Shown here: positions 3,241 to 63,335 of the stretch, in pieces
How the letters are laid out: every line of letters begins with the position of its first letter
How positions within the stretch are numbered: the stretch's first letter is position 1
From: Escherichia coli phage Shin27
Length of the DNA: 64,000 nt
Reading direction: 5' to 3' (one strand)
Sequence record: LC788709.1
Program-made: the position numbers and the translations under genes
Notes under the pieces: model-generated
What the model was told of the DNA's origin: nothing
Databases searched by the model: none
What the model saw: only the letters and a program-made list of their open reading frames with translations

Positions 3241-3662
3241 TATTGAGTTACTCCATCGCTGATGTATACTTTACCTTCCATAATACGGAAAGAATTGACT
3301 TCAGAGCCAATTACATCACGAGTCATTAGGATATCATAATAACCAGCAAAACGTTGTCTTGGGTTATACTTATCACGTTCTTTAGATGCTTTTTCACCAA
3401 TATTAGTAGTGTCTGCAATGGAAAGACTAATTGCAGCAGCACCTTGGGCAGCATCAATAATATGAGTTTTAAAATCAGCTAGAACCTCGGCGTTCTCATC
3501 TAAACTAGATTTAATAGTTCCTCGGAGTGAATATCCGGTTAAGTTAACAGGAACTTCTGTTGGTGGATATACACTGTCATCAACATCCATAAACTGCATG
3601 ATAAGACCATAAGGTACTTTCTCATCAACAACAATATCAATAACTCGGTTTTCTGTACTCAT
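3240..3662 (-). CDS. tail collar protein (T5 p132-like)
   Basis: 140-aa ORF between fibre and central-fibre genes; size and position match the T5 collar protein as recalled. Confidence 0.45.
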
Positions 3663-3667
3663 TATAA

Positions 3668-5725
3668 TTACCTTATATGGATATACCCACTATTTAGGTC
3701 TATCTTCATCTTGTAGTATGCTTCAGGGTTCCCTGATAATGCAGCATTTCTATCGTAGATTATATTAACACCTATTTGTGATAAGAAGGCATTTCCTGCC
3801 ACAATCTTATCAGCAGTTACAGTTCCATTAACAATCATGTTGCCATGAAGAACCATTGCAGGGTTAATCCATCCAGCCCCGTTCCATTGACGGGTAAATG
3901 CTGTTTGTGGAGCATTACTGTTAAATTGTGTTAAGACATCGTATTTAACTGGAGGTTTTCCAAAGTTATTTTGGAAGAATGCATTAGCCTGTCCATCATC
4001 CCAACCACCTAATCCAGGAATACCCATGGAGTACATCCCAGGACCACGCTGTCCATCATGTCCTATAGTACCTTCAGTACCACTCCACTGAACCACATCA
4101 GACCAGCTAGTACCTTCGAGAAGTTTGTTAGTAACTGGATCAAGTGTACCCGTAGTAGCATAGATATTTTGTGTCATATCTGTACGATTAGGTGGAGTTT
4201 TTGACCAACCAGGAGGTGGATAATCTTGTTCTAGCGGTTTAGCTGGTAGAGATGTTGCTAACTTATAAACAAATACTGTTTGTTTACCCTGTAATCCAGT
4301 ACCAATATCTACGTCACCATTTGGTGTTCCAATTACTACACCACTAGAAATACGTAGGGTAGTACCATCATAACGTATCCATTGTGTAGCATTACCAATG
4401 TCTAATTTAGCTTTGGCAGAGGTATTATCCATGCCCATCCAAATACCAGAGTTATTATCTCCCCAAGATTTACCTTGAGTGTAAATTGCTGGATTATCTT
4501 TACCAGACAAGTTAGTCATAATAAAGTTTGCAGCATTAATATCTCTAGTGATTACTTTACCATCAACGTTAACAATACGGTTTATAGGGTCGAAAGAAAT
4601 AGGTGCTTTACCTTCTTCATCTAGCAGACCAATGTTAATAGCACCAGTAGCTGCATCAATTAGGAATGTTTGTCTCCAGATTTCCCCATCTTTCATGCTG
4701 CCTTTAATAAAGGCATAGTTAACATCAATACCCGTCTCATTGACAAAGCTGTTGTCTAGAGGAGTATCTTCATTCAGAATAAATGTTACAGGAACTGACT
4801 CTGTTATATCTTGTTTATTTGGTCCCCAGGCAATTGATGATACCTTAAAAGTATGTTCAACTTTCCATGGGAATGATATAATTGTTGCAGCTCTGGCAGC
4901 ACCCACGTTTATCTTTTGAGCTTTAGCCCATCCGGTTTTAGCATATTCCTCGGAGTTTATGTAAGTAACCAAAAACTCACGAACGTTAGCACCAGCACCA
5001 CGTTCCCAATCCCACTCAATTCTAACATCATATCGTTCTTTACCATCTGCAATTCGTGCAGCTTTAAAAACAATATCGATAGGTGCGGTAGGAGGAACAA
5101 AGTTATAAGCTACAGTTAGAATACTAGGGAATTCATAGTATCCAGAAGAATCAACTGTAACACCATCAGGCATAGTTACTTGACCAGATATTCTGATCTT
5201 ATAATCTCCGATAGGAACTCCACCAAATTTAATAGTAGAACCTAAAGCCCCAATGTAATATTTAGTCCATGGACTGTCTTCAGTGGCTGTACTTTTTAAC
5301 TCAATAGTACAGTAGCTTGCTTCACCAGTTGTTTCCACAACAACTATCGGTGAGCCCACCCCAACATCCACGGGTTCTGACTCAGATCTTGCTGCAACAA
5401 TTATTGGCTTCTCTTTTGTTTTAAAGTTAGTTTCATTAGAGAGGTTAATACCAATTTTTGCATTTAAAAGTTCTGAGTCAATAATTGAGTCATAAAAAGC
5501 TCCCTGAACCTGATAGGTAGTTGAGGGAGTTAAGTTATTGATCATAACAAAGAAAGTGTCGATTCCAGTGAAATCTCTTCTATCCACTTCTTCGCCAAGT
5601 TTAAGCCAAAATGATCTACCGATAACATCGTAGTCGGTATAGATAGAATGCTGGATATACGCCATAGTATATCCAGTCATAATACTATTTAAGACCATCT
5701 TGGCTGGTGCATTATTCGAAATCAT
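3668..5725 (-). CDS. central straight fibre / tail tip protein (T5 pb4-like)
   Basis: 685-aa ORF directly downstream of the baseplate hub gene; size close to T5 pb4. Confidence 0.55.
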
Positions 5726-8575
5726 TTAAATAGATGCCCAATCCACAGATTGCTCGCCATTATCACCTTCTGCTCTTATACGGAAGCGTAACTTCCTATT
5801 AATACCTAGAGCATCCTCGTTATGAAGAGCATAGTCTGCCTTATTGTATATCAGTAGATAATCGTAGACATACTGATCTTCAATTCGTACACTTCTTAAT
5901 AAACGATCTAGGTTATCGTAGATTTCGAGAGTGTAGAAGATTCCATCAATAATATCTTCTTCTGGAATTCTATCCCAGGCCAACTTAACGTCTGGTCCTA
6001 CAAACTCCGATGCATCTCCTGAAGCTGTGTTAGTAACCCTGAAATTACTAACGACGCTTAAGTTTTTAGCAGAGTTAAGTTCTACCGATAGTGTTACAGG
6101 AGAACTTCGTCTACCATTAATATCTACAGCTCTAATCTCAAAGACTGCTAAACCAGCAGGTTCTCCAATAATTTCTTGGATCATTCGTAGATTTGGATTA
6201 GTTTCTAGTTGCTGTACTATATAAGGATCAGCATGCCCAGAGTGAACGATGGAGTAATAAACAACGTTATTAGTTAAGCTAGGAAGCCAAGATAGCTCAC
6301 CATTCTTACCAATAGATCCTACTTGTCCACCAGGTGTTGGTGTATACATAAAGTCTCTAGGAGGCAGTACGTTATTACTAACATCAGGAATATCATTACC
6401 ACTATTATCTACCTGTTCAGAGTTAATAAATACATCTTCTCCATACTCTTGTAGAGTAATATTAATCTTGCCTTCTCTTGAGTTCTCAACCTCATCTACT
6501 AGGAAGTATTTCTTATTCCACCCATAACGGTCATAAGTAAACGCTACTGGATCGTTGGGTTCAATACCAATGAAATGGTAAGGTAGAGAGAAAGATAGAG
6601 TTCGAGAGTAACGAGACTTTTTAAGTTCTCTATCAGCAAAACTACGTGCAGTGTAGTAGTTAGTAATGTTTGCAAAGGATAATTGCAGCTTTTTATCTAA
6701 TCCTTTATCCTGCTCTTTAAATATAGAGTTAAAGAATGTAATGGAGTTAGTTTTCCAGCTTAATGCGGGATCTAGTATAGAGGCTTGTACTGAGTTAAAC
6801 TTATTTCTACCAGTAGTATCTGATAGCTCCAGATCACCATAGGTATCTAAGAAGTCAATCTCTAATGGGGTGTTTGAGAACTTCTCAACAGTTATTCTAT
6901 ACTGTCCAGATAAGTTGTTGATAGCACCGCCATAAGACTCTATTAATCCCTGCACGTTTTTAAATACTGACTCAGAGGTATCGAGAATAGTATTCATTTG
7001 AACTATTTGTCTATTCTCTCCTACAGCATCAGTCCATCCAACGTATCTCCAGTAGGGCTGCCAAGAAACCTGATAGGATTCATCAATGATATCCAGGATA
7101 GCTGCTTCTTGAATAAGTTGCTGGAGAGGGAACTGATCAATAGTGATATTAGCACCGTAGCGGTCAGAGGTTAGGTAGTCCAGAGTTTGCCAGATACCAT
7201 TTAAGCTAGTCTTATCAGCAGTTACTCTACCATCTGAATGATAGATCTTAATCTTCTTACCTTGAACTTCAGCGCTAACTTCTGGAATTTCTGTTCTGTT
7301 TTCATTAATAGTAAAGCGAACAATAGCATAAGCAGTATCTAACAGTTTATAACGAGTGTCCCAGTATTCCGGTCCATTCTCATTCATGTTCTGTAGATAG
7401 AAACCTTTCTCTTTTGCAATGTTAACTAGAACATCAGCAGCAGATTGATCAGCCTTACCATGATAAGTCCAGATACGGATATCGCCATTACCATCATTAT
7501 ACTTATATTCCTGTCCATGAACAGAAGGTTCAGAGCTTGGTTGACCAGAAGCAATACGTTGCATGGTATCGCCAGCTACTTTCTTAGTACCAAAGCAAGT
7601 ACGAGACTTACTATCATTAGGATCAATACAGATCATTGGTACATCACCAAAGTAAAAATCTAGGAACCCATCAATCTCACCCTCACAGAAAGCGTATACT
7701 ACATATACGATATTAGGATTATGCAGTTCAGTATCTGCAAATACTGGGACTCCAGGAATTTTCTGAACTCCATATACTACTGGCAGGAATTTAGCAGCTA
7801 AGTTAAAATCAAGATCTACTTCCTTAGTTACAGTCTCATAGTATTTCTTTAGGCTATAGCTTCTAGAAAGACCAAATAACTTTTTCTTAGATTGTAACTT
7901 ATAACGTTCTTCCTGAACCTGATACTTAGCAAGAATAGAAATACTCTTGTTAGCATGAAAGAATCCGTAGTCCTCTTGATATTCAGGTCGTTTAGCACCA
8001 TTAGATGGAACTAATTGGCCAGCAACAATCTCAAGTCCCCTATGGTCAGCATCATCTGTGAAACGTCCGTTTACTCTATCAAAGTCATAGAATTGGTTTG
8101 AACAGTTCCATGTAATAACAGATGTACTAACTCCAGAAGTACCAATGTTATCCTTAATACCACCACCAGTGATTTTACCACGGAAGTAAAGTAAAGGACC
8201 ATTAGTATCTGGATCTACAGGAAGAATGTTACCTTCTTCATCAATAACCGCTTGATGGATTGAAATAGATCTATCTAGGAAGGATACACCATTTTGGACT
8301 AGTTTTAATACTTCATCCTCAGCAGTACCTGTGATAGTAAAAGAAAGGCTACCAATGGAAAGTTTTCTATTTTGTTTATGTGTTGTTATAGACTTAACTT
8401 TACCGGATGTGTAAAGAATACCATTATAAATTACATCCCTAAAATAGTCTGTAAGATAAATGTACGCAGAACTTGATCCGGTAGAGCTTGGCAATTCAAG
8501 AGTAATAAGGCATGCAGTTTTTATTTTATTATTGGTTCTTAGATACTCTCTTGCACTGTCAAGAATTTTCTTCAT
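5726..8575 (-). CDS. baseplate hub protein (T5 pb3-like)
   Basis: 949-aa ORF following the distal tail protein; size and position match T5 pb3 as recalled. Confidence 0.6.
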   Translation of the reverse strand: MKKILDSAREYLRTNNKIKTACLITLELPSSTGSSSAYIYLTDYFRDVIYNGILYTSGKVKSITTHKQNRKLSIGSLSFTITGTAEDEVLKLVQNGVSFLDRSISIHQAVIDEEGNILPVDPDTNGPLLYFRGKITGGGIKDNIGTSGVSTSVITWNCSNQFYDFDRVNGRFTDDADHRGLEIVAGQLVPSNGAKRPEYQEDYGFFHANKSISILAKYQVQEERYKLQSKKKLFGLSRSYSLKKYYETVTKEVDLDFNLAAKFLPVVYGVQKIPGVPVFADTELHNPNIVYVVYAFCEGEIDGFLDFYFGDVPMICIDPNDSKSRTCFGTKKVAGDTMQRIASGQPSSEPSVHGQEYKYNDGNGDIRIWTYHGKADQSAADVLVNIAKEKGFYLQNMNENGPEYWDTRYKLLDTAYAIVRFTINENRTEIPEVSAEVQGKKIKIYHSDGRVTADKTSLNGIWQTLDYLTSDRYGANITIDQFPLQQLIQEAAILDIIDESYQVSWQPYWRYVGWTDAVGENRQIVQMNTILDTSESVFKNVQGLIESYGGAINNLSGQYRITVEKFSNTPLEIDFLDTYGDLELSDTTGRNKFNSVQASILDPALSWKTNSITFFNSIFKEQDKGLDKKLQLSFANITNYYTARSFADRELKKSRYSRTLSFSLPYHFIGIEPNDPVAFTYDRYGWNKKYFLVDEVENSREGKINITLQEYGEDVFINSEQVDNSGNDIPDVSNNVLPPRDFMYTPTPGGQVGSIGKNGELSWLPSLTNNVVYYSIVHSGHADPYIVQQLETNPNLRMIQEIIGEPAGLAVFEIRAVDINGRRSSPVTLSVELNSAKNLSVVSNFRVTNTASGDASEFVGPDVKLAWDRIPEEDIIDGIFYTLEIYDNLDRLLRSVRIEDQYVYDYLLIYNKADYALHNEDALGINRKLRFRIRAEGDNGEQSVDWASI

Positions 8576-42448: not shown

Positions 42449-42645
42449 TTACGAACCCCATTTATTGCTGCGATAACGCCTTCATACATGAAAGGAAGAA
42501 CTTGTGAAATGTGGAAATCTTGGACTGTCCAACCAGCTTCTTGATACATAATGTTAATGATTGCACAACTTAACATAAAAGCTGGTAGAATTATAAAGTA
42601 ATCCCACGTTGCTTTCTGCAAGTTAGGGTTATAAAAATTAATCAT
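42445..42645 (-). CDS. small membrane protein
   Basis: 66-aa ORF with TM helices. Confidence 0.35.
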   Translation of the reverse strand: MINFYNPNLQKATWDYFIILPAFMLSCAIINIMYQEAGWTVQDFHISQVLPFMYEGVIAAINGVRK

Positions 42646-42745
42646 CTGTTTTTAAGTCTCCGTATTACTTTGGCCTGCTCAACGATTATGAAAGCGGCAA
42701 CCACTAAACCGAAGATTAGGATTGCCGTAACAGTTGTTAAATCAA

Positions 42746-43078
42746 TCAAGGCAGACGCCAAATATAATGGGCTGTCCAAAGTGTTTCTGGTTCATCGTCA
42801 TGATGCATCACTAGGGACTCTGGAGAATAACTATTAGCCAGTTCTTTACGAACCATCTCACGTTCTTCGCCAGTTTCAATATTTTTAACAATCACTTTCA
42901 TATTAAGAGGAGTTAGCTCAGAAAGTGGTCGCCATAAGTCTTCCAGATCTGTTTTAGTTTTATTCTGGATGGATTGCAAGACTTCTAGTGTCTGAGGATC
43001 TACATTAATAAACCCACGTTCAGTAACAAAACCTAGAAACTCGTCCAGCAGGGTTAATTCACTAAAATTAAGCTTCAT
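42746..43078 (-). CDS. hypothetical protein
   Basis: 110-aa ORF. Confidence 0.4.
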   Translation of the reverse strand: MKLNFSELTLLDEFLGFVTERGFINVDPQTLEVLQSIQNKTKTDLEDLWRPLSELTPLNMKVIVKNIETGEEREMVRKELANSYSPESLVMHHDDEPETLWTAHYIWRLP

Positions 43079-43313
43079 CTTTCAGAATATCCTCGATCAT
43101 GTCAGAAGATTGCTGTAGTTCGTCTACAATGCGTTTAACGTCAGTTTTTGTCACTTTACAGGCCAACATCGTGAACAGCATTGCAACGATGATGATAGGA
43201 ACTGGCAGAACAAACAGTGCTACTTTAGCAACGTTCTTCGGGGTCCAGGTATGATACTTAGTAACCAGAACACCAACAATAACCAGATAAAAAGCTAAGA
43301 TAATTAACATCAT
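43068..43313 (-). CDS. small membrane protein
   Basis: 81-aa ORF with two TM helices. Confidence 0.35.
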   Translation of the reverse strand: MMLIILAFYLVIVGVLVTKYHTWTPKNVAKVALFVLPVPIIIVAMLFTMLACKVTKTDVKRIVDELQQSSDMIEDILKDEA

Positions 43314-43591
43314 TTCTTAATCTCCGTGATTACCTGAGCGCGCAGGACTTTAATAGGAAGTTTAGTGTTACCAACAAGAGTTTCAATATTCGTTAGCTTT
43401 TCTTTAAGAAGATCTGAGCGTCTTTGTGCTAATTCGATATCTTCTTCCTGTTCAACGAGACGTTTAACTAGCCCATCATTGGTGAGGCGCATCCTATCCA
43501 TATTTTTATTAGCATTAATAATGCCAATGATTCCACCAATTGCTGCTAAAGTCGTGAGAACCAGTAATCCAATTAAAATTTCTGTTATCAT
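43310..43591 (-). CDS. small membrane protein with coiled coil
   Basis: 93-aa ORF with N-terminal TM. Confidence 0.35.
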   Translation of the reverse strand: MITEILIGLLVLTTLAAIGGIIGIINANKNMDRMRLTNDGLVKRLVEQEEDIELAQRRSDLLKEKLTNIETLVGNTKLPIKVLRAQVITEIKK

Positions 43592-43995
43592 TTAAATACT
43601 CCATTAGCACACCACATGGATGGTGGGACTTCTTCTACATTTCCATAAAATTTGATCTTAAATAAGACACTACCTTTATTTTGGCAGAAAATCTTTCCTT
43701 CCTCTACCATAATTTTTGCTTGATTTGTGTCACCAGATCTTAAAACATCTATTACTGTAACCCCTGTAAATCTGGAGAATTGTTCATCAGCATATTCACC
43801 TTGTTGACGGTGTCTCTGCTCCATTTCCATGGCTGCTTTCTTTGCCTCTTCCCATTTATCCTTATGCTGGGTTGGGGCTTCCTTAACTTCTACTTTATCA
43901 CGCTGGTTAAGCATGAAATCGGTAACACCGAGTGTGATAGCTAGAGAGACTAGGGCATTCAGCCCTAGTACAAGTAAGAATTTTCCATTAGTCAT
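43588..43995 (-). CDS. membrane-anchored protein
   Basis: 135-aa ORF with N-terminal TM. Confidence 0.4.
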   Translation of the reverse strand: MTNGKFLLVLGLNALVSLAITLGVTDFMLNQRDKVEVKEAPTQHKDKWEEAKKAAMEMEQRHRQQGEYADEQFSRFTGVTVIDVLRSGDTNQAKIMVEEGKIFCQNKGSVLFKIKFYGNVEEVPPSMWCANGVFK

Positions 43996-44264
43996 TATTT
44001 CTTACCTTTCAGTTGCTTAACTTCACGCTCAAAAGATGCTGCACGACGTTCGGCAGTTGCCTGATGCTCTTTCGCAAAACGTGCTTCTTGTTTCGCAAGG
44101 TTGAATGCCATAGCATTCTTGTTCAGAGAATCATACATCTTTTTCATTGCCGGAATAGACATCTTCATGAGCTGACCTTCAAACCCTTGCATGTCCAACA
44201 GGATAGCCAATACGTTTGCCATTTCAGTTTTAGTCATGTTTTCCATTTGAACTTCCTCTCTCAT
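43995..44264 (-). CDS. hypothetical protein
   Basis: 89-aa ORF directly downstream of a T5-type promoter. Confidence 0.4.
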   Translation of the reverse strand: MREEVQMENMTKTEMANVLAILLDMQGFEGQLMKMSIPAMKKMYDSLNKNAMAFNLAKQEARFAKEHQATAERRAASFEREVKQLKGKK

Positions 44265-44278
44265 TAATTTATAAATAT

Positions 44279-44307
44279 ATTATATAAGATTTCTGGACAT
44301 TTAGCAA
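44279..44307 (-). promoter_or_regulatory. T5-type early promoter (TTGCTA-N17-TATAAT)
   Basis: minus-strand hexamers with 17-bp spacer and conserved AT-rich leader. Confidence 0.55.
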
Positions 44308-44312
44308 GTAAA

Positions 44313-44843
44313 TTATTTATTTAATTCTTCTAATGCTGGAAGCAACCCGCGAAAGACTTCCTTAACTGCTAGCTCTCCGTGAAGCTCTTCCCTTAGTATA
44401 TTAGCTGCTTCAACAGCTAAATTTAGATCTTGGTATCTAAAGTAGCCACCATGTACTGGAGTACTTTCAGAATTTCTGGCTTGGACTCTCCATTGCTGGA
44501 GATCTTTCTTCCAGCTAACCCCTAGATATCCAGAATTAGATTGTGCGACTTTATTACGATTATTTTCCTGAGATGTGGCATCCTTTAGATTACACCATCT
44601 GTTATCTTTTCTTATATTATTTAAGTGATGAACTAAACCTGGGATATAACCCTCCATATACAGGAAAGCTAATCTATGGGCTGCATATCTTTTTCTGTTT
44701 ATCCCGATAAATATATAACCATCTTTATCGGGACTGCCAGCGATAGCTCCAGCTTTAGCTCTACCCTTACTGACTTTCCTTATAAAGTCTCCTGTATCGG
44801 GATTATATTCAAATAGTTCTTTTAGTAGTTCTTGTGTTATCAT
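44313..44843 (-). CDS. HNH homing endonuclease (HNH_3/AP2-like)
   Basis: 176-aa ORF; motifs YAAHRLAF, HHLNNIRKDNRWCNL. Confidence 0.6.
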   Translation of the reverse strand: MITQELLKELFEYNPDTGDFIRKVSKGRAKAGAIAGSPDKDGYIFIGINRKRYAAHRLAFLYMEGYIPGLVHHLNNIRKDNRWCNLKDATSQENNRNKVAQSNSGYLGVSWKKDLQQWRVQARNSESTPVHGGYFRYQDLNLAVEAANILREELHGELAVKEVFRGLLPALEELNK

Positions 44844-55659: not shown

Positions 55660-55695
55660 AAGAAAACCCCAGACTACCTATTCAATAGCTGGGGT
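55660..55695 (-). terminator. terminator-like hairpin
   Basis: CCCCAG...CTGGGG stem with large loop flanked by T/A runs. Confidence 0.35.
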
Positions 55696-55705
55696 TTATT
55701 ATTAA

Positions 55706-56005
55706 TTAGATAATTTCGACAATATCCTGAGTTACAAAACCGTCGAATTCATCAGAGATACCACCTGTAAAGGTGATGCCCATAATCATTGCATCCATCT
55801 TTTTAATCTCCGAGATTTTCATGCCTGCTTTACTATTCTTATAGTATTTGCGAGGATTCCCACACATCCAACAAGAACAGATGCAAGGAGTGGTAGTGAT
55901 AATGCCTAACCGCTTAGGACTTTCTTCATGTGGGAAGACTGTCCAATACTTTTTGCGATTGTTTTTCACACGTTGCCGGTGATGGCGTCTTAATGCTCGA
56001 TCCAC
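55706..56005 (-). CDS. Cys-rich small protein
   Basis: 99-aa ORF with CICSCWMC motif. Confidence 0.35.
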   Translation of the reverse strand: MDRALRRHHRQRVKNNRKKYWTVFPHEESPKRLGIITTTPCICSCWMCGNPRKYYKNSKAGMKISEIKKMDAMIMGITFTGGISDEFDGFVTQDIVEII

Positions 56006-56086: not shown

Positions 56087-56455
56087 TTATATCGCCTGAG
56101 TAAATGTACGACTAATAACGTCGTTCTGTTGTTCACGCGTCAATGCGTTAAATCGAACAGCATAGCCAGAGACACGGATGGTCAACTGAGGATATTTTTC
56201 AGGATGTTTCTGTGCATCCAAAAGCTGATCACGGCTTAACACATTGACATTTAGGTGCTGACCACCCTCGACTTGAGGAACCACTTCCACATCTACAATG
56301 CGAAAGGCCTCAGGGTCAAAGTGAGGTGTGATACCTTCTAGATCTTCGACTAGAACTTTCTGTTTAAGTTCACCATCTTTAGAATATAGTTGAATGATCT
56401 GATTGTTATGAACAATGTTAATTACGCCAGACTTAAGACTTTGATATGCTTTCAT
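56087..56455 (-). CDS. grcA: autonomous glycyl radical cofactor (GrcA/YfiD-like)
   Basis: 122-aa ORF; C-terminal [10 protein letters not shown]...[24 protein letters not shown] matches the glycyl-radical signature RVSGY and the E. coli GrcA C-terminus as recalled. Confidence 0.7.
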
Positions 56456-56820
56456 TAGATCTCCCTGATGTTAGAATTTGGCTCAGCTTTTTGTTAACCC
56501 AGAAGCAAGATAAAAACTGGAAGGCAGGCTTGCTTATTAAGTGAATACCCGATAATCGCTCGTAGTCCGGCTTGTGGATTGATAGTCCCATTCAGTTTAA
56601 TAAGCACAGGAGCTTTGATTTTAACGTTGCGATCTTCCAGGTCTGTTGCAACTACGTGATTGCTCACGCTAAGACAATGGCTATCTAAAGTCTTAGCTTC
56701 TACATTTATACTCCTGGATAGCATGGAGTTGCAGTCTACTTCCTGCTGTCACGCCCGGCCATTTATAGAATGTGGACTCTCTTCTCAGCAGGATCTGGTA
56801 CAATGACCTGATCCTCTGTT

Positions 56821-56896
56821 TGGTAGTTAGTAGTGGATTTGAACCACTGTAGTCGCTCCGTATGAAGGAGGTGCATAACCACTCTGCCAACTAACT
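56821..56896 (-). tRNA. tRNA-Met(CAT): tRNA with CAT anticodon (Met / initiator / Ile2 not distinguishable)
   Basis: hand fold: 7-bp acceptor, T-loop TTCAAAT, anticodon loop TTCATAC, encoded CCA. Confidence 0.6.
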
Positions 56897-56902
56897 ATAA
56901 TT

Positions 56903-56978
56903 TGGTACTCCGACTTGGGATCGAACCAAGATTTGACGATTATCGGTCGCCTGTTCTAACCGTTTGAACTATCGGAGC
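56903..56978 (-). tRNA. tRNA-Ile(GAT): tRNA-Ile (GAT) candidate
   Basis: hand fold: acceptor GCTCCGA/TCGGAGT, T-loop TTCGATC, anticodon loop CCGATAA (C at position 33), CCA encoded. Confidence 0.5.
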
Positions 56979-56979
56979 A

Positions 56980-57273
56980 TTACATCATTTCGTCTAAGTA
57001 AGAAGTATACTGGTATTTAGCTTCTCCAGTTTTATCTACTTCGACTTCTGTTCTAGGTACTTTTCGTACCAGACCGTGAATCATCTTGTACTGAATAGAC
57101 TTAGATGGTTCGTGATCTTTTGGAAATACTTGTTTAACCGTTACTACTTTGAAGCCTTCACGAGGTGTTAGCACAACAACTTGATCACCTTCTTTTATTT
57201 TCCAAGACTCAGGAAATTCGTAAGTGTAGCGTTGACCACCCGTTTGGAACACGACAGAAAGATAACGTTTCAT
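56980..57273 (-). CDS. hypothetical protein
   Basis: 97-aa ORF between tRNA genes, downstream of a T5-type promoter. Confidence 0.4.
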   Translation of the reverse strand: MKRYLSVVFQTGGQRYTYEFPESWKIKEGDQVVVLTPREGFKVVTVKQVFPKDHEPSKSIQYKMIHGLVRKVPRTEVEVDKTGEAKYQYTSYLDEMM

Positions 57274-57303
57274 TTGGTTTCCCTCTCATTAATTTATGTA
57301 AAT

Positions 57304-57332
57304 ATTATAACAAGAAATAAGAGAGAAGGCAA
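57304..57332 (-). promoter_or_regulatory. T5-type early promoter (TTGCCT-N17-TATAAT)
   Basis: upstream of 56980..57273 and the first tRNAs. Confidence 0.5.
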
Positions 57333-57347
57333 ATGAATTTTTAAATT

Positions 57348-57422
57348 TGGTGCTCCCACCAGGAATCGAACCCGGTTCAGATGCTTACAAGGCAACTGCA
57401 TCGCCAGCAATGCTTTAGGAGC
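57348..57422 (-). tRNA. tRNA-Thr(TGT): tRNA-Thr (TGT)
   Basis: hand fold: acceptor GCTCCTA/TGGGAGC, D-stem GCAT/ATGC, anticodon loop CTTGTAA, T-loop TTCGATT. Confidence 0.6.
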
Positions 57423-57589
57423 AATAAACCCGTTATTTCAACGGAATTTCTTTTTCAAATACAGGAGACTTATCAGACATTACTGTCATAGCCAACTGCT
57501 GTAGAAATTCGAATGAGAGTTTTAAACGTTCTTCACCCAACTCAACCTCAACACACTTCATTTGCTTATCAACCTTTAGCTTTAGATTA

Positions 57590-57811
57590 TCAGCCCTCTT
57601 CGGGTTCTCTTTGCTCAGCTATTGCTAGCCAGTCTGGTAAAAGAAACTTAGTACGAAATTCTTCATATGTTTCTTCTGGATGAAAGCTATAGCCTTGCTT
57701 TTCATCATTTAATAAAACCGAACCGTCTTCCTGTTCATAAGCTCGGTATGTTTCACCAATAATTAAAACTCGTCTATTGGGGTTTTTATTACGAAACTCA
57801 AAAACGTCCAT
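57590..57811 (-). CDS. hypothetical protein
   Basis: 73-aa ORF. Confidence 0.35.
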   Translation of the reverse strand: MDVFEFRNKNPNRRVLIIGETYRAYEQEDGSVLLNDEKQGYSFHPEETYEEFRTKFLLPDWLAIAEQREPEEG

Positions 57812-57826
57812 AACGTTTCCTTAAGT

Positions 57827-57901
57827 TGGTGCGGGATACGAGAGTCGAACTCGTGTCTACTGGTTGGAAGCCAGTTATTCTAGCCACTGAACTAATCACG
57901 C
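57827..57901 (-). tRNA. tRNA-Gly(TCC): tRNA-Gly (TCC)
   Basis: hand fold: anticodon arm ACTGG-CTTCCAA-CCAGT, T-loop TTCGACT, CCA encoded; one acceptor mismatch. Confidence 0.6.
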
Positions 57902-57907
57902 ATAAAT

Positions 57908-57983
57908 TGGCTGGAGAAGGAGGAATCGAACCTACCATTAACGGAGTCAAAGGCCGTTGTGCTAACCGTTACACTACTCTCCA
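57908..57983 (-). tRNA. tRNA-Gln(TTG): tRNA-Gln (TTG)
   Basis: hand fold: U1-A72 acceptor, anticodon loop CTTTGAC, T-loop TTCGATT. Confidence 0.6.
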
Positions 57984-57989
57984 AGTATT

Positions 57990-58065
57990 TGGCTGGGATG
58001 CCACGGATCGAACGTGGAACCTTCGGAGTCAGAGGCCGACGATCTGCCAATTGATCTACATCCCA
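57990..58065 (-). tRNA. tRNA-Gln(CTG): tRNA-Gln (CTG)
   Basis: hand fold: U1-A72 acceptor TGGGATG/CATCCCA, D-stem GATC/GATC, anticodon loop CTCTGAC. Confidence 0.6.
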
Positions 58066-58072
58066 ATAATTT

Positions 58073-58273
58073 TTATTCTACAGGAACCGTGGCAATTGGA
58101 TCTGGTTCTTCTAGACGTTTACCATTATGGTCAACACGAATAATACCACAACCTTCACAGATTACAACAGCACCATAGCCTTCTTTAACTTCGGCTTCTG
58201 TAATCAGACCAGAAAGATCACCAGTATCTTTGCCCCACATATCGATAGAGCATTCTTTGCAGAAATCAGCCAT
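58073..58273 (-). CDS. Cys-rich zinc-ribbon-like small protein
   Basis: 66-aa ORF with CKEC and CEGC pairs. Confidence 0.35.
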   Translation of the reverse strand: MADFCKECSIDMWGKDTGDLSGLITEAEVKEGYGAVVICEGCGIIRVDHNGKRLEEPDPIATVPVE

Positions 58274-58287
58274 ATTTTAGTTCCTGT

Positions 58288-58362
58288 ATAAGTTAATTGG
58301 TGCATCCTCAGGGAATCGAACCCCGATCGTAAAGTTCGTAGCTTTACATTCTTTCCGTTGAA
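58288..58362 (-). tRNA. tRNA-Arg(ACG): tRNA-Arg (ACG)
   Basis: hand fold: anticodon arm TAAAG-CTACGAA-CTTTA, T-loop TTCGATT, CCA encoded. Confidence 0.65.
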
Positions 58363-58367
58363 ATAAG

Positions 58368-58444
58368 GACGCATATTTGGGGTGGCTAGTGGAATTCGAA
58401 TCCACATAGGCCTGATTCACAATCAGGATCATTAACCAATTATG
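58368..58444 (-). tRNA. tRNA-His(GTG): tRNA-His (GTG)
   Basis: hand fold: acceptor GTGGCTA/TAGCCAC, discriminator C, anticodon arm CCTGA-TTGTGAA-TCAGG. Confidence 0.65.
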
Positions 58445-58699
58445 ATATAGCCACAATTGAATACTATTAGGGGATGATCAGTCCTCCATTTGGCCGTCTA
58501 AGGTACCAAAGTTAGTCATTCTGCGCACAGGTTTTTCTCCTGATTCTTTATTGCGAATGCTCTCTAATAATACTCAATTGTGGCGGCTCTCCGAAACTCT
58601 TCTACTCTAGCCTTAGCAGCTTACTCCCGAACGCATGTCGGGAAAGTCTTACTAAGAACATCAAATAGCACCGTTACACTTTGAGCCATTAATGTATCA

Positions 58700-58835
58700 A
58701 GAAGCAGAAGGACTTGAACCTTCACGAGATAGACCATTTATCTCAGCCTCGTTTTCGGGTATCTTATGAGGAGTGGATGTTCCCCTTACGCCCTTTAGGA
58801 AGCCCCGTCTACCGATTCCGGCATACTTCAAGATT
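58700..58835 (-). ncRNA. tRNA-like element of atypical length (no canonical cloverleaf found)
   Basis: contains GGTTCAAGTCC T-arm and GAATCGGTAGA D-loop-like motifs but ~130 nt and no pairing acceptor stem by hand. Confidence 0.25.
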
Positions 58836-58925
58836 TGGCAGAAGATAATGGAGTCGAACCATCACCGTATCACTACAGCGGGCCGGTTTTCAAGACCGGT
58901 TACGTACCACTACGTCCTATCTTCT
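58836..58925 (-). tRNA. tRNA-Ser(TGA): tRNA-Ser (TGA), class II
   Basis: hand fold: perfect acceptor AGAAGAT/ATCTTCT, anticodon arm CCGGT-CTTGAAA-ACCGG, long variable arm, CCA encoded. Confidence 0.7.
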
Positions 58926-59152
58926 AGTATTTGTTCTACTTCTTTTCGAAGATCTTCTGGATTATCATGATAGGTTGTTTGCCATACATAAATAACTCCA
59001 GTATCACATGCTTTATCAAATATTTCTCGCTCAGGAAGTTTCATGCCCATTGCGTACTTGATATGAAACTCTAAAGCTTGCTTACTAGGGAATGTATGAC
59101 GCAAGAAAAACTTATCATTAACTAAATCCAACATCATAATCTTGACTTTCAT
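58910..59152 (-). CDS. hypothetical protein
   Basis: 80-aa ORF; 3' end overlaps tRNA-Ser by ~16 nt. Confidence 0.35.
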   Translation of the reverse strand: MKVKIMMLDLVNDKFFLRHTFPSKQALEFHIKYAMGMKLPEREIFDKACDTGVIYVWQTTYHDNPEDLRKEVEQILEDRT

Positions 59153-59173
59153 TTATATTCCCTATTAGTTGTT

Positions 59174-59266
59174 TGGCGGAAGAAGAGAGATTCGAACTCT
59201 CAAGCCTGCTTTAACAAGTCAGCCACTTTCCAAGCGGTTTTCGTCACCTAATCGATTTGCTCTTCC
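59174..59266 (-). tRNA. tRNA-Ser(GGA): tRNA-Ser (GGA) candidate, class II
   Basis: hand fold: acceptor GGAAGAG/TTCTTCC, anticodon loop TTGGAAA, long variable arm, T-loop TTCGAAT. Confidence 0.55.
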
Positions 59267-59440
59267 GTAGATCTCAGGATTAAATCATAAACTTCATTAG
59301 CAGATACTGGAAGTATGAGATTATACATCTTTTGGTCATACCTCTGACCATACTCTATAAACACATACTCTTTAGTTAATGTATTAACAGCTAACCAGAT
59401 ATCAGTTATAGGAGTTTTCATCATGAGTTAATCCAATGTT

Positions 59441-59521
59441 TGGTAGGGATGGAGGGACTCGAACCCACACCCGAAGACTAGAACCTAAATCTAGCGCGTC
59501 TGCCAATTTCGCCACATCCCC
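59441..59521 (-). tRNA. tRNA-Leu(TAG): tRNA-Leu (TAG)
   Basis: hand fold: acceptor GGGGATG/CATCCCT, D-loop AAATTGGCAGA, anticodon arm CTAGA-TTTAGGT-TCTAG, extended variable region. Confidence 0.6.
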
Positions 59522-59528
59522 ATTTTAT

Positions 59529-59747
59529 TTAGTTAGAAATAAATAGTAACCCTGCAACAATGGAACCTATGCCACTGAATACCATTATCAGCATAGCTTC
59601 TAAGCTGATAAAGCGGACGTTATATGGAGCGCCCCAAGAATAATCAGTAAAGAAAGTTTTCTTTTCTTTAGCTAAATCTTTAATAGTTCTAAAATAGATA
59701 GCTAGTGCTAAAGCTACAAGAACTACAGAGGCTGCTAAGAATACCAT
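59529..59747 (-). CDS. small membrane protein
   Basis: 72-aa ORF with two TM helices. Confidence 0.35.
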   Translation of the reverse strand: MVFLAASVVLVALALAIYFRTIKDLAKEKKTFFTDYSWGAPYNVRFISLEAMLIMVFSGIGSIVAGLLFISN

Positions 59748-59766
59748 ATTATTTCCTTAATTTGTT

Positions 59767-59842
59767 TGGTGGAGTCACTCAGAATTGAACTGAGTTCCAC
59801 TGCTTGCAAGGCAGTAAGTTTAACCAAATAACCTATGACCCC
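59767..59842 (-). tRNA. tRNA-Ala(TGC): tRNA-Ala (TGC)
   Basis: hand fold: G3-U70 in acceptor, anticodon arm ACTGC-CTTGCAA-GCAGT. Confidence 0.65.
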
Positions 59843-59847
59843 GAATT

Positions 59848-59926
59848 TGGTGGAGAATAAGAGATTCGAACTCTTCTGATATCCTCGGTGCAAGCGAGGT
59901 GTCCACTCCAAGCAGACCCATTCCCC
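59848..59926 (-). tRNA. tRNA-Ala(TGC): second tRNA with TGC anticodon (Ala-like, 7-nt variable loop)
   Basis: hand fold: acceptor GGGGAAT/ATTCTCC with G3-U70, anticodon arm CCTCG-CTTGCAC-CGAGG, T-loop TTCGAAT. Confidence 0.5.
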
Positions 59927-59929
59927 AAA

Positions 59930-60165
59930 ATCTTTAAGTTTACTAAGGCTATTAGCTCGGTGTGCGTATTACCCTCAGACATTAGCCAGTAGAGGATAAC
60001 CGCTCTTCACAAACCCGATACACTATTCAGTTGCCGCTGAATCTAGTGGACTAATCTAGAACTTATTGCAAAGTATCCCCCGCCATTAAGGGTCTACTTG
60101 CAATTGTGCTTTTTGGCAGCCAGTCCTAGGTCGAGCTAATACCTTAGTGAACTTTGATGAGGATT
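59930..60165 (-). ncRNA. ORF-free ~235-nt segment in tRNA array (candidate stable small RNA)
   Basis: no ORF >= 60 aa on either strand, lies downstream of promoter 60189-60217 and upstream of tRNAs. Confidence 0.2.
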
Positions 60166-60188
60166 TCTCCTCATCAATTTATATAAAT

Positions 60189-60217
60189 ATTATAACAAGA
60201 AATTAAGCATCAAGCAA
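60189..60217 (-). promoter_or_regulatory. T5-type early promoter (TTGCTT-N17-TATAAT)
   Basis: upstream of the ORF-free segment and tRNAs 59767-59926. Confidence 0.55.
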
Positions 60218-60569
60218 GTACATTTTTAGCGATTTCTTGTATTTCCTTAACGTCACTAACGAAAAGGTAATCAGAGCTTCCAGAGTGCATACTCTGCATA
60301 ACCACACCATCCTCTGGTGCATCTTCTTTCAAAGTAATACCTAACCAGAACTCGGCAAAACTAGGTGTTACCTCACCTTGACTTGCCTTGAATACATCGG
60401 CTTCTGTGATCTCCTGACCAGTAGAGAGTCCCATGTACGGTACGTTCAGATCAATATCTTTGTAAAACTCAGCTAGATCTTGTTCGAAGTCCCAACCTTT
60501 AGAGATAGCGAACTCCATTGTTACATGACCGAAATAGCCTTGAACCTTGCTTGATAATTGCATTTGCAA
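60210..60569 (-). CDS. hypothetical acidic protein
   Basis: 119-aa ORF. Confidence 0.4.
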   Translation of the reverse strand: MQMQLSSKVQGYFGHVTMEFAISKGWDFEQDLAEFYKDIDLNVPYMGLSTGQEITEADVFKASQGEVTPSFAEFWLGITLKEDAPEDGVVMQSMHSGSSDYLFVSDVKEIQEIAKNVLA

Positions 60570-60588
60570 TTCCTTATTTTGAGTTAAT

Positions 60589-60662
60589 TGGTACTCGGTG
60601 ATAGAATCGAACTATCGCAACCGCCGTGTAAAGACGGGGTTCTCCCATTAAACTAACCGAGC
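60589..60662 (-). tRNA. tRNA-Val(TAC): tRNA-Val (TAC)
   Basis: hand fold: anticodon arm CCGTC-TTTACAC-GGCGG, T-arm GATAG-TTCGATT-CTATC. Confidence 0.65.
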
Positions 60663-60666
60663 AATT

Positions 60667-60744
60667 TGGTGGATTGCCTGGGATTCGAACCCAGAACTGA
60701 CGGATTAAAGGTCCGCTACTCTTATCCGGTTGAGCTAGCAATCC
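60667..60744 (-). tRNA. tRNA-Lys(TTT): tRNA-Lys (TTT)
   Basis: hand fold: perfect acceptor GGATTGC/GCAATCC, anticodon loop CCTTTAA (C at position 33), T-loop TTCGAAT. Confidence 0.6.
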
Positions 60745-61208
60745 AATTTTTCTACTAATAATTTAAAAGCATCTAGTACAGGTACTTCAAACCATTCCCC
60801 GGATACTCTGTAGTCTTTGAGAAGATTATGTAACTCTTTCTCCGTACGTCTTTTATCTGACGAAAATCTGAAATGGTGTAGCTTGTAGTCTCTATTAGGT
60901 GAATAGGTTTGATAACTTGCTAACCTCTCATTTACATCTATAGTCATACCTATTTTATACATGCCTGGCCATGCGGGATTACCGATTACATATACAAAAC
61001 CTTCCGTTATAGGTATTTTATGTTCTCTTTTGTATTTTAAGAGATTTAAAGCTGCCATTCGATAACAGAATTTAAATTCTGAAGTTTTTAACTTACCCTC
61101 TTTACCAGAAATTTCATTATATTTGCTCATATAAGCTCTTATAAGCTTATCATCTATAATAAAATTATCAGGAAGGTTTAAGGCAGCTAAAACTTTATTA
61201 ATTAGCAT
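60735..61208 (-). CDS. T5orf172 / GIY-YIG-like domain protein
   Basis: 157-aa ORF; GFVYVIGNP...GMYKIGMT segment resembles T5orf172-type domain. Confidence 0.4.
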   Translation of the reverse strand: MLINKVLAALNLPDNFIIDDKLIRAYMSKYNEISGKEGKLKTSEFKFCYRMAALNLLKYKREHKIPITEGFVYVIGNPAWPGMYKIGMTIDVNERLASYQTYSPNRDYKLHHFRFSSDKRRTEKELHNLLKDYRVSGEWFEVPVLDAFKLLVEKLDC

Positions 61209-61383
61209 AAACTTCCTTAATAGAGTAGACTTTCAAGTAAGGATGATTAATACCAAATTCCGCCATTACTTCATTTTCATCTTTACCATAATGGGCTAGT
61301 GGATACTTCTTACGATCTTTACTAGAACGTAAATCACTTACTTTTAAACGAAATAATTTCATTTCGAAATCCTTCTATTAAAT

Positions 61384-61461
61384 TGGAAGCGGGTGCAGGA
61401 ATCGAACCTACCTCTTTCTAGCTTATGAGACTAGCGATCTCTACCAGAGATCTAACCCGCA
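61384..61461 (-). tRNA. tRNA-Met(CAT): tRNA with CAT anticodon and unpaired 1:72 position (initiator-like feature)
   Basis: hand fold: D-stem GATC/GATC, anticodon arm CTAGT-CTCATAA-GCTAG, T-loop TTCGATT, CCA encoded. Confidence 0.5.
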
Positions 61462-61467
61462 ATTGTT

Positions 61468-61545
61468 TGGTCTCCGTGGGAGGATTTGAACCCCCGACCC
61501 TATCGCCCCAAACGAAACGCTCTGGCCAAACTGAGCTACACGGAG
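61468..61545 (-). tRNA. tRNA-Pro(TGG): tRNA-Pro (TGG)
   Basis: hand fold: perfect acceptor CTCCGTG/CACGGAG, D-arm GCTC/GAGC, anticodon loop TTTGGGG, T-loop TTCAAAT. Confidence 0.65.
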
Positions 61546-61577
61546 AATATTCTTTGTTAACTCACTTTATAAAATAT

Positions 61578-61606
61578 ATTATACAGAGAATTAAGCTAAA
61601 TAGCAA
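61578..61606 (-). promoter_or_regulatory. T5-type early promoter (TTGCTA-N17-TATAAT)
   Basis: upstream of tRNA-Pro and the CAT tRNA. Confidence 0.55.
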
Positions 61607-61624
61607 CTACATTTTTTAATAAAT

Positions 61625-61855
61625 TTACTTATTGCGTAGGCCACCTGGAGGGTTCAAGCCCCACGGCTGACAAAGAAGTTTGCGAGACTTCTCTTAAACG
61701 CCAGAATAGACCCGCCGATCTATCGGAACCTACTCAATAAGTAAACTTTCGTTTACCTACACCTACCTGGTCGGGAGGATTTTCAGCGACTAGAACCGGC
61801 CGGAAACTCATCGCCTTGTTTATCTAGGAGTCCGTTCTCTAGGAAGCAGAAACCT
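61625..61855 (-). ncRNA. ORF-free ~230-nt segment in tRNA array (candidate stable small RNA)
   Basis: no ORF, between tRNA-Gly(GCC) and promoter 61578-61606. Confidence 0.2.
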
Positions 61856-61860
61856 AAATT

Positions 61861-61934
61861 TGGTGCGGTCGGAGGGAATCGAACCCTCAACTTCTGGTTG
61901 GCAACCAAAAATTATACCTTTTAACTACGAACGC
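61861..61934 (-). tRNA. tRNA-Gly(GCC): tRNA-Gly (GCC)
   Basis: hand fold: anticodon arm TTTGG-TTGCCAA-CCAGA, T-loop TTCGATT, CCA encoded. Confidence 0.6.
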
Positions 61935-61944
61935 ATAATAAGTC

Positions 61945-62060
61945 AATCTAGGCAGGACTTGAACCTGCTATCACTTGTGCGGATTTACGAGAACCATTCT
62001 TTCACTCGAATCGAACGAGCTTCTACCCTCGGCAAGCTGGTGTCCCCTCTCCACCACGCT
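61945..62060 (-). ncRNA. tRNA-like fragments (possible tRNA pseudogene or atypical RNA)
   Basis: two T-arm-like motifs (GCAGG-TTCAAGT-CCTGC and GCTCG-TTCGATT-CGAG) without a complete cloverleaf by hand. Confidence 0.2.
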
Positions 62061-62147
62061 AGAATGATAATTAGTGCCTGCTCCTTTGAATCAAGAAGTC
62101 CACCCCGGACTTTGGGTCTTTGCAGTACATCACGCTGCTCTGATGTT

Positions 62148-62224
62148 TGGTACACCCACTAGGACTTGAACCTAGAACCTACCGCTTAAGAGGCGGTAGC
62201 TCTAACCAATTGAGCTATGGATGT
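62148..62224 (-). tRNA. tRNA-Lys(CTT): tRNA-Lys (CTT)
   Basis: hand fold: D-arm GCTC-AATTGGTTA-GAGC, anticodon arm ACCGC-CTCTTAA-GCGGT, T-arm CTAGG-TTCAAGT-CCTAG. Confidence 0.6.
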
Positions 62225-62230
62225 ATAATT

Positions 62231-62305
62231 TGGCGGTACTAAGGGTAATCGAAACCCTACCTCTCCCGTGACAGGGGAGTATCCTAACCGTTAGACTATA
62301 GTACC
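62231..62305 (-). tRNA. tRNA-Asp(GTC): tRNA-Asp (GTC)
   Basis: hand fold: perfect acceptor GGTACTA/TAGTACC, anticodon arm CTCCC-CTGTCAC-GGGAG. Confidence 0.65.
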
Positions 62306-62877
62306 TTTAACTTTTTAAGTTCTTTAGGATTGCCTCCTAAAGAAGTGTATCTTTTACGCAACCCATTATCTGAATAACTTAACTTTCTCCCTGCACCTGA
62401 CCAGCCTAGCTCTCTTACTGTAACCTCGATTATTTCTTTAGTTATAGAGATATCTTTTGGTTTATGTGAAGAGCACTCCTGACATTTTTCAGCTTTTAAA
62501 GAAATAGCTTTACCACAATCCTTACAACAATTATCATGGTTTAGTTTACTAAATCCTTTATCTTTTAAAGTCTTTTCTAGATGCTGCTCTTTTGTGAGCA
62601 CTTGTAAGTTATTAAGACCCCAATAAGTAATGTCTGTGTTAATATGGTCAACTTCTAGTTCAGAGTCTAGACTTGGTAATTTCTTAAATGCACATGCTAA
62701 AATCCTATGTACACCGGTATTTCTCTGTTGACCATTTTTATGGAGACGTATAGATAAGTATCCGTAATTACTGGTTATTTGGGTTAGTATTTTGTTTGAT
62801 TTGATACTAAATACTAACCCATCCAAACTTACTAAGTACTCCTCAAACCCTGGAATGGGTAAGGATATTCCGTGCAT
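62296..62877 (-). CDS. HNH homing endonuclease
   Basis: 193-aa ORF; NUMOD4-like N-terminus, HNH core VDHINTD...NNLQVLTKEQH; abuts tRNA-Asp. Confidence 0.6.
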   Translation of the reverse strand: MHGISLPIPGFEEYLVSLDGLVFSIKSNKILTQITSNYGYLSIRLHKNGQQRNTGVHRILACAFKKLPSLDSELEVDHINTDITYWGLNNLQVLTKEQHLEKTLKDKGFSKLNHDNCCKDCGKAISLKAEKCQECSSHKPKDISITKEIIEVTVRELGWSGAGRKLSYSDNGLRKRYTSLGGNPKELKKLKVL

Positions 62878-62880
62878 AAT

Positions 62881-63066
62881 TTACTCAGTTTTGAGTTTTT
62901 CGATAGCTTCCTCAACCTCTTTTAGAGCTTCACGACGCTCTACTTGACCTTGAAGTTCTTCAAGAAGTTCAGCTTTCAGAGCCTTAATAATATTACCACG
63001 AACCTTAATATTATTAATCAGATTATCACGATCAGCTTCTAGTCGAGCAATTGCACGAGTTGTCAT
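62881..63066 (-). CDS. small coiled-coil protein
   Basis: 61-aa ORF. Confidence 0.3.
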   Translation of the reverse strand: MTTRAIARLEADRDNLINNIKVRGNIIKALKAELLEELQGQVERREALKEVEEAIEKLKTE

Positions 63067-63169
63067 ATCTATTTCCTCAGTTGTTAATGAAAAATGGTAT
63101 CTGTGACTGAATTCGATATCAGCAATGATAGCTGGTTGGCTACCGGTTTACTTAACTCTACACAGAATA

Positions 63170-63252
63170 TGGCGGGCCGTGTAGGATTCGAACCTACGTT
63201 GTCTTTCGACATGGATTAACAGTCCACCGCCAAACCGCTTGGCTAACGACCC
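63170..63252 (-). tRNA. tRNA-Asn(GTT): class II-like tRNA (Tyr-type architecture) with GTT (Asn) anticodon
   Basis: hand fold: 3-bp D-stem GCC/GGC, anticodon arm GTGGA-CTGTTAA-TCCAT, 13-nt variable arm, T-arm GTAGG-TTCGAAT-CCTAC, discriminator G. Confidence 0.5.
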
Positions 63253-63259
63253 TAAAATT

Positions 63260-63335
63260 TGGACGACCGCATGAGATTCGAACTCACATAAGGAGGTTTT
63301 GCAGGCCTCCGCCTAAGCCATTCAGCCAACGGTCG
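63260..63335 (-). tRNA. tRNA-Cys(GCA): tRNA-Cys (GCA)
   Basis: hand fold: anticodon loop CTGCAAA, T-loop TTCGAAT, CCA encoded. Confidence 0.55.

Follow-up and report, generated by a model that had tools for sequence, protein, structure and literature searches.

The locus examined here raises the question of what a 122-aa phage protein does when its C-terminal half resembles the end of a host fermentation enzyme. GenBank records give very different answers: the same 122-aa protein is labeled 'ribonucleotide reductase subunit', 'pyruvate formate-lyase', '2-ketobutyrate formate-lyase', 'hypothetical protein', or 'glycyl radical cofactor', and the T5 record describes the orthologue T5.056 as a 'putative acetyltransferase-related protein, identified by match to IPR001150'. 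Among the labels attached to the 122-aa protein, only 'glycyl radical cofactor' is defensible. A first-pass annotation, made from the letters of the sequence, had proposed a phage-encoded GrcA-like autonomous glycyl-radical cofactor; every sequence test that we ran agrees with this proposal, as does the published rescue activity of the phage T4 homologue, Y06I. The feature itself is already known, having been annotated in many T5-like genomes and belonging to a family that was characterized experimentally in 2001. The residual value of the T5-type gene lies in its inconsistent annotation across databases and in its unusually divergent N-terminal half.

We analyzed a 64,000-nt stretch of Escherichia coli phage Shin27 (LC788709.1), referred to here as the window. 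The 3 kb around the gene are 98-99% identical to the T5-like phages Wa28, 1-23, S114, and bux, and by sequence the window belongs to a T5-like phage (Epseptimavirus, Demerecviridae). The protein does not differ at any residue from bux_122 of Salmonella phage bux (100% identity), which carries the label 'glycyl radical cofactor', and its orthologue in phage T5, T5.056, is identical at 115 of 122 residues. Homologues were found by tblastn in 1,583 phage records, about 440 of which, at 80% identity or more, are T5-like phages; the remaining homologues, at ~50-75% identity, are carried by T4-like phages (gene vs.6), and homologues also occur in jumbo phages of ~350 kb and in large Vibrio phages. 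Just a 67-aa C-terminal piece is annotated in Citrobacter phage YZU-L1 (P0033). The ORF in the window is intact, starting with ATG and comprising 122 codons and a stop according to the window's ORF list. The positions of the gene, its parts, and its surroundings are collected in Table 1.

Table 1. Features at and around the GrcA-like gene, in window coordinates and in the order of minus-strand transcription
Feature	Coordinates	Strand	Basis or remark
Sigma-70 promoter-like site, TTGCCT-17-TATAAT, extended -10 TG	57304..57332	minus	Promoter scan, 10/12 matches
ORF	56980-57273	minus	First after the P11-type promoter
tRNA-Met	56821-56896	minus	Between tRNA-Ile and spacer
Spacer, ~345 nt	56465-56809		Between tRNA-Met and GrcA-like gene; absent from T5
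76-aa ORF in spacer	56494-56724	minus	Matches phrog_19031
Shine-Dalgarno sequence GGGAG	56461..56465	minus	5 nt before ATG of GrcA-like gene, read from sequence
GrcA-like gene	56087..56455	minus	ORF list: ATG start, 122 aa, stop codon within coordinates; family from matches in Pfam, NCBIfam, PHROG, PDB
Divergent N-terminal half, residues 1-60	56276..56455	minus	Putative counterpart of GrcA N-terminal region
Glycyl-radical domain, residues 61-122	56090..56275	minus	Alignments; equivalent to PflB 698-759, GrcA 66-127
RVSGY radical loop, residues 94-98	56162..56176	minus	Codons CGT GTC TCT GGC TAT, read from sequence
Codon of radical glycine G97	56165-56167	minus	R94-A99 invariant in homologue alignment
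99-aa basic protein, T5.055 homologue, phrog_4499	55706-56005	minus	Directly downstream of GrcA-like gene
Predicted rho-independent terminator (ACCCCAG...CTGGGGT then TTTTCTT)	55661..55697	minus	After gene 55706-56005; matches T5-annotated terminator

The sole Pfam family found in the protein was Gly_radical (PF01228), which matched residues 62-103 with an E value of 4.1e-18 and a score of 66 bits against a cutoff of 22. The three best NCBIfam models were all GrcA models (TIGR04365, E 2.4e-34; GrcA3, E 5.9e-34; GrcA2, E 6.9e-26), and below them came the C-terminal ends of pyruvate formate-lyase (PFL) and of other glycyl-radical enzymes. The protein also belongs, over its full length, to PHROG 1209, the phage family that contains Y06I (E 7e-47, residues 1-122 against profile positions 1-121 of 121). 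The best sequence match among solved structures was E. coli GrcA/YfiD (6owr, E 2.2e-29), followed by E. coli PFL (E 1.6e-26, residues 61-121 against 698-758). With 122 aa, the product falls into the ~14-kDa class of small stand-alone proteins whose C-terminal half is PF01228. It did not reach the TIGR04365 equivalog cutoff of 170 bits, scoring 118.3 bits with only residues 54-121 aligned. E. coli GrcA scored 234 bits, and the T4-type vs.6 protein used for calibration, which was that of phage AR1 and is near-identical to the validated T4 protein, also fell below the cutoff at 154.9 bits. Given that the cutoff is tuned to bacterial proteins, a phage member may score below it, and the shortfall does not exclude the phage protein from the family.

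The first-pass annotation had reported an RVSGY glycyl-radical signature and a resemblance of the C-terminal 60 aa to GrcA/YfiD and PFL, and both observations held up on explicit alignment. Over residues 61-122, the protein is identical to E. coli GrcA at 49 of 62 positions, to PflB at 48 (PflB ~698-760), to TdcE at 52 (TdcE ~703-764), and to T4-type vs.6 at 48, which corresponds to 77-84% identity over 62 residues and is far beyond chance. The radical glycine loop is conserved in these alignments, including those to PflB and TdcE, and the exact RVSGYAV loop of E. coli GrcA is present, with G97 as the radical glycine; the equivalent residues are G734 in PflB and G102 in GrcA. An alignment of 33 diverse homologues has 34 invariant C-terminal positions (R94-A99 and 28 others), and V100 is kept in at least 90% of the sequences. 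In an AlphaFold2 (AF2) model with a mean pLDDT of 75, G97 forms the tip of a beta-hairpin (residues 92-95 and 98-101) that is followed by the C-terminal helix, and a Foldseek search of this model against the PDB returned the YfiD NMR structure, 6owr, as the only significant match (E 2.5e-6).

These comparisons also bear on the formate-lyase labels. A full-length PFL is a barrel of ~760 aa with Cys418/Cys419, and the phage protein has 122 aa; the PFL model TIGR01255 aligned to it solely at profile positions 683-743, with 84 bits where the cutoff is 994. The phage protein has the C-terminal domain in common with PflB and TdcE but lacks their catalytic barrel of ~700 residues and their active site with Cys418/Cys419; it therefore cannot itself be a formate-lyase, and labels such as 'pyruvate formate-lyase' are misnomers. 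E. coli GrcA, on the other hand, has the same two-part layout as the phage protein, with a ~60-aa N-terminal half and a ~62-aa glycyl-radical domain. The two differ in that E. coli GrcA is a host stress gene, while the T5-type gene is phage encoded and reads as an early phage gene, and in that their N-terminal halves are not detectably similar in a direct comparison.

We considered whether the N-terminal half belongs to the same family as the radical domain. A direct hhalign comparison of the N-terminal halves of T5-type proteins and bacterial GrcA was not significant (probability 2-18%). However, the T5-type half aligned with that of the other phage types at 80% probability (E 1.6e-6), and that of the other phage types aligned with bacterial GrcA at 98.6% probability (E 6e-15). 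The N-terminal half of the T5-type protein would thus be linked to bacterial GrcA only via intermediate phage sequences and, by these comparisons, appears to be the most diverged in the GrcA family. Given this chain of alignments, the whole protein is best read as a very divergent GrcA homologue, and not as a radical domain fused to an unrelated sequence. For the first ~55 residues of the phage protein, the AF2 model showed a beta-rich fold with four or five strands and a pLDDT of ~83. The possibility of a distinctive folded N-terminal domain in the phage protein was rejected, given that the bacterial GrcA control yielded the same prediction, a beta-rich N-terminal half with a pLDDT of ~89 and a short helix. 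A Foldseek search with the N-terminal half found no match among solved structures. By NMR, residues 1-60 of E. coli YfiD are disordered in solution (PMC8683613), and the predicted beta-rich fold may be a conformation that is adopted when the region is bound to cleaved PFL. The same residues of YfiD are required for binding to cleaved PFL and for efficient radical installation and are dispensable for catalysis (PMC8683613). Since the N-terminal half of the T5-type protein is without detectable direct similarity to that of bacterial GrcA, its binding specificity could differ, and the divergent half could help to define what the N-terminal region of such spare-part proteins recognizes.

Because the similarity to E. 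coli genes at the DNA level is confined to the 3' half of the phage gene (nt 184-369, about 75%), we weighed the possibility that the gene is a non-functional captured fragment of the 3' end of host pflB, tdcE, or grcA. Against this stand the intact ORF with its Shine-Dalgarno sequence and the retention of the gene in about 440 T5-like genomes. In the comparison with T5.056, dS was 0.58 and dN was 0.034, giving a dN/dS of 0.058; by half, the ratio was 0.088 (residues 1-60) and 0.026 (residues 61-122). Both halves are under strong purifying selection, and even the N-terminal half, which is the part without DNA similarity to the E. coli genes, has a ratio of only 0.09 compared with 0.06 overall. 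The GC content of the gene (40.7%) matches that of the phage window (39.9%) and not that of E. coli grcA, pflB, and tdcE (48-53%). The selection and conservation data refute the captured-fragment reading, to which we assign practically no probability. Third codon positions are saturated, with about 45-52% identity to each of grcA, pflB, and tdcE. Given the phage-like GC content and the low third-position identity to the E. coli paralogues, the gene is an old, ameliorated phage gene and not a recent host fragment.

The T4 homologue makes a useful comparison on this point. T4 vs.6 (Y06I) is 51% identical to the T5-type protein over the full length (E 5e-38), is of similar length (120 versus 122 aa), begins with the same MKAYQxL, and also belongs to PHROG 1209. 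The two proteins have the same C-terminal radical domain, but their N-terminal halves match at only 17 of 51 positions. They also differ at the DNA level: the 3' 185 nt of T4 vs.6 are 97.8% identical to E. coli K-12 grcA, whereas the T5-type gene is 71-74% identical to any E. coli paralogue. The vs.6 gene of the T4-like phage AR1 has 97% third-position identity to grcA in its 3' part. No DNA similarity to grcA was detectable in the 5' half of T4 vs.6, and the T4-type gene looks like a chimera of a recently host-derived radical domain and a phage-type N terminus. The 3' identity thus points to a recent exchange between T4-type phages and the host, with no sign of such an exchange in the T5-type gene; recent capture from the host was rejected for the latter on its 71-74% DNA identity and its third-position identity of about 45-52%.

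The surroundings of the gene argue for early expression. In T5 and other Demerecviridae, the orthologues occupy this same position, following tRNA-Ile and tRNA-Met within the early tRNA region. The gap from tRNA-Met to the gene is 13 nt in T5, and in the window the spacer takes its place. This spacer was found in about 257 T5-like (Epseptimavirus-type) records, many of which have only its final ~145 nt. For the 365-nt interval that precedes the GrcA-like gene, Rfam gave no structured-RNA match, and the fold energy was ordinary (z = -0.57). The promoter-like site listed in Table 1 is strong and is orthologous, and nearly identical in sequence, to P11, an early promoter annotated in T5. The order of transcription on the minus strand is promoter, ORF 56980-57273, tRNA-Ile, tRNA-Met, spacer, GrcA-like gene, 99-aa ORF, and terminator. 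From this arrangement, the P11-type promoter probably drives ORF 56980-57273, both tRNAs, and the GrcA-like gene as a co-transcribed unit, and the gene for the 99-aa protein probably shares the transcript. The 99-aa protein has a cysteine cluster, C-I-C-S-C-W-M-C-GNPRK, and no Pfam family was found in it. Scans of 10 neighboring ORFs against Pfam and PHROG for operon partners returned only families of unknown function, and the neighbors thus provide no pathway context for the GrcA-like gene.

The function of the family is known from work on its two validated members, E. coli YfiD and T4 Y06I, which are the only ones (PMC8683613). Wagner et al. (BBRC 285:456, 2001; Knappe and co-workers; cited in PMC8683613) described YfiD and Y06I as 'spare part' proteins: the PFL-activating enzyme installs a glycyl radical on them, after which O2-cleaved PFL is active again (PMC8683613). 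The homology, the intact motif, the selection, the conservation, and the genomic context of the T5-type protein were all obtained in our analysis, and we infer its activation by PflA and its rescue of cleaved PFL from this published work on YfiD and Y06I. A search of the literature for the T5-type protein found no functional study, and the BF23 paper did not mention it. Taken together, we consider it about 80% probable that the protein is an autonomous glycyl-radical cofactor of the GrcA/YfiD/Y06I type that is expressed early from a host-type promoter, together with the phage tRNAs, and rebuilds O2-cleaved host PFL. Repair of oxygen-damaged host PFL, as suggested in the first-pass annotation, is the best-supported of the proposed roles, given the published rescue by Y06I.

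In such a mechanism, O2 would cleave active host PflB at its radical glycine, and probably TdcE, the PflB paralogue, as well, so that the C-terminal radical domain is lost. The C-terminal 62 residues of the phage protein would duplicate the lost piece, with its beta-strand, RVSGYAV glycine loop, and helix, and could dock into the damaged enzyme with the assistance of the N-terminal half. The host activase PflA would then install a new radical on G97, and the conversion of pyruvate to acetyl-CoA and formate would be restored. The fermentative supply of ATP and acetyl-CoA, as well as formate production, could in this way be maintained during infection under microaerobic, gut-like conditions. The phage would thereby carry a replacement part for an enzyme of host metabolism, making the gene an auxiliary metabolic gene suited to the oxic/anoxic boundary of the gut. 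The concept of a repair part has been established since 2001 through the work on T4, and annotation of the gene in the T5 family goes back to the T5 genome (T5.056).

When E. coli PflA and NrdG were used as tblastn queries, neither the window nor the complete bux genome yielded a match with an E value of 0.1 or below; the best match was a 22-aa stretch of NrdG (E 0.76), and a scan for CxxxCxxC activase motifs returned only chance or irrelevant occurrences. Given that neither the window nor bux revealed a PflA- or NrdG-like activase, the GrcA-like protein and the phage NrdD presumably depend on host activases, in the case of the GrcA-like protein on PflA. In T4-like phages, by contrast, an annotated activase adjoins nrdD.

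An alternative to repair is that the protein acts as a decoy or modulator, titrating host PflA or occupying PflB/TdcE and thereby redirecting or shutting down the fermentative metabolism of the host. A PflA decoy would likewise need the RVSGYAV loop, so the sequence by itself is compatible with this alternative, and the strong divergence of the N-terminal half from bacterial GrcA means that binding behavior could differ. However, the whole 62-residue domain is nearly as strictly conserved as it is in functional GrcA and PFL, this conservation extends beyond the activase-recognition loop to the beta-strand and helix that rebuild the barrel, and the T4 homologue restores activity and does not inhibit it. 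We therefore regard a decoy or modulator as unlikely and favor repair.

Within the repair reading, the identity of the partner enzyme deserves comment. The protein could in truth pair with another host glycyl-radical enzyme instead of PflB, above all TdcE (2-ketobutyrate formate-lyase). Over its C-terminal 62 residues the phage protein is closer to TdcE (52/62) than to the other two E. coli paralogues, and its last 24 residues differ from TdcE at only two positions; by tblastn, the match to TdcE was 85% over 61 aa (E 1.3e-27), compared with 57% over 98 aa for PflB (E 1e-26). Yet the differences between the paralogues are few (48, 49, and 52 of 62), the comparison with each of them is saturated at third codon positions, and PflB and TdcE share their activase and their chemistry, such that the protein may serve both. 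A dedicated partnership with TdcE or another such enzyme therefore has, in our judgment, a small chance of being correct, somewhat above that of the decoy.

The first-pass annotation had offered a second role, in which the protein serves a phage anaerobic ribonucleotide reductase, and it had suggested looking for nrdD and nrdG elsewhere in the genome. This part fared differently. A tblastn search of the window with the bux NrdD gave no match better than E 0.75; nrdD is present in the close relative, bux, and an nrdG-like gene was found in neither the window nor bux. The bux NrdD (bux_74), encoded ~29 kb from the GrcA-like gene, is full length, 52% identical to E. coli NrdD, and contains the NRDD domain PF13597 (E 6e-173) as well as a PF01228 domain of its own. 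About 390 phage records have an NrdD at 90% identity or more, and NrdD is near-universal in T5-like phages, whose two glycyl-radical proteins are NrdD and the GrcA-like protein.

The GrcA-like protein could accordingly be imagined to provide the phage's own NrdD with a spare or auxiliary radical domain, as the presence of NrdD in T5-like phages and the 'ribonucleotide reductase subunit' label of some GenBank records might suggest. The phage NrdD, however, has its own Gly_radical domain, its loop is RVCGY with a Cys-rich insertion in front of it, and its C terminus is identical to the GrcA-like protein at only 17 of 59 positions, against 48-52 of 62 for PflB and TdcE; these three points make a direct cofactor role very unlikely. 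The gene for NrdD also lies outside the window, at the distance seen in relatives. An anaerobic ribonucleotide reductase subunit would be recognized by PF13597, by RVCGY with a Zn-binding Cys cluster, or by an NrdG activase; Pfam found no PF13597 match in the GrcA-like protein, which has no cysteines and hence no CxxxCxxC motif. The 'ribonucleotide reductase subunit' label is not supported for this gene, nor is the direct cofactor role, which we rate as highly improbable.

The two phage proteins may instead be connected indirectly. PFL is the cell's source of formate. Passages in PMC5704485 and PMC4493059 give formate as the reductant of class III reductases of the E. coli/T4 type. We speculate that the T5-type GrcA and the phage NrdD could form a functional pair, in which PFL kept alive under fluctuating O2 secures formate for NrdD, and in which the diverged N-terminal half might tune binding to the Salmonella/E. 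coli enzyme or to TdcE; we hold this only tentatively, as one possibility with the odds against it. If true, the pairing of GrcA with NrdD would secure the dNTP supply for phage replication.

Several further observations were made across the window. All 21 tRNA genes are on the minus strand and form a cluster at 56821-63335, with small ORFs interspersed. The cluster includes adjacent duplicates, namely, two tRNA-Ala(tgc) genes and tRNA-Gln ttg/ctg; the second tRNA-Ala (59848-59926) has a low score of 38 bits, and the long-arm tRNA-Ser at 58836-58925 matches tRNA-Sec in Rfam below the threshold. In the window, late structural genes (1-37000), with tail proteins among their products, are joined to the early region (37353-64000). 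The early region is 98-99.7% identical to bux, and positions 2895-7370 align at 96%, in the opposite orientation, with the tail genes of bux. The segment at ~42500-44840 had no match of at least 800 nt among the bux pieces compared. At that place bux carries a homing-endonuclease gene, bux_147, an indication that the content of mobile elements is variable.
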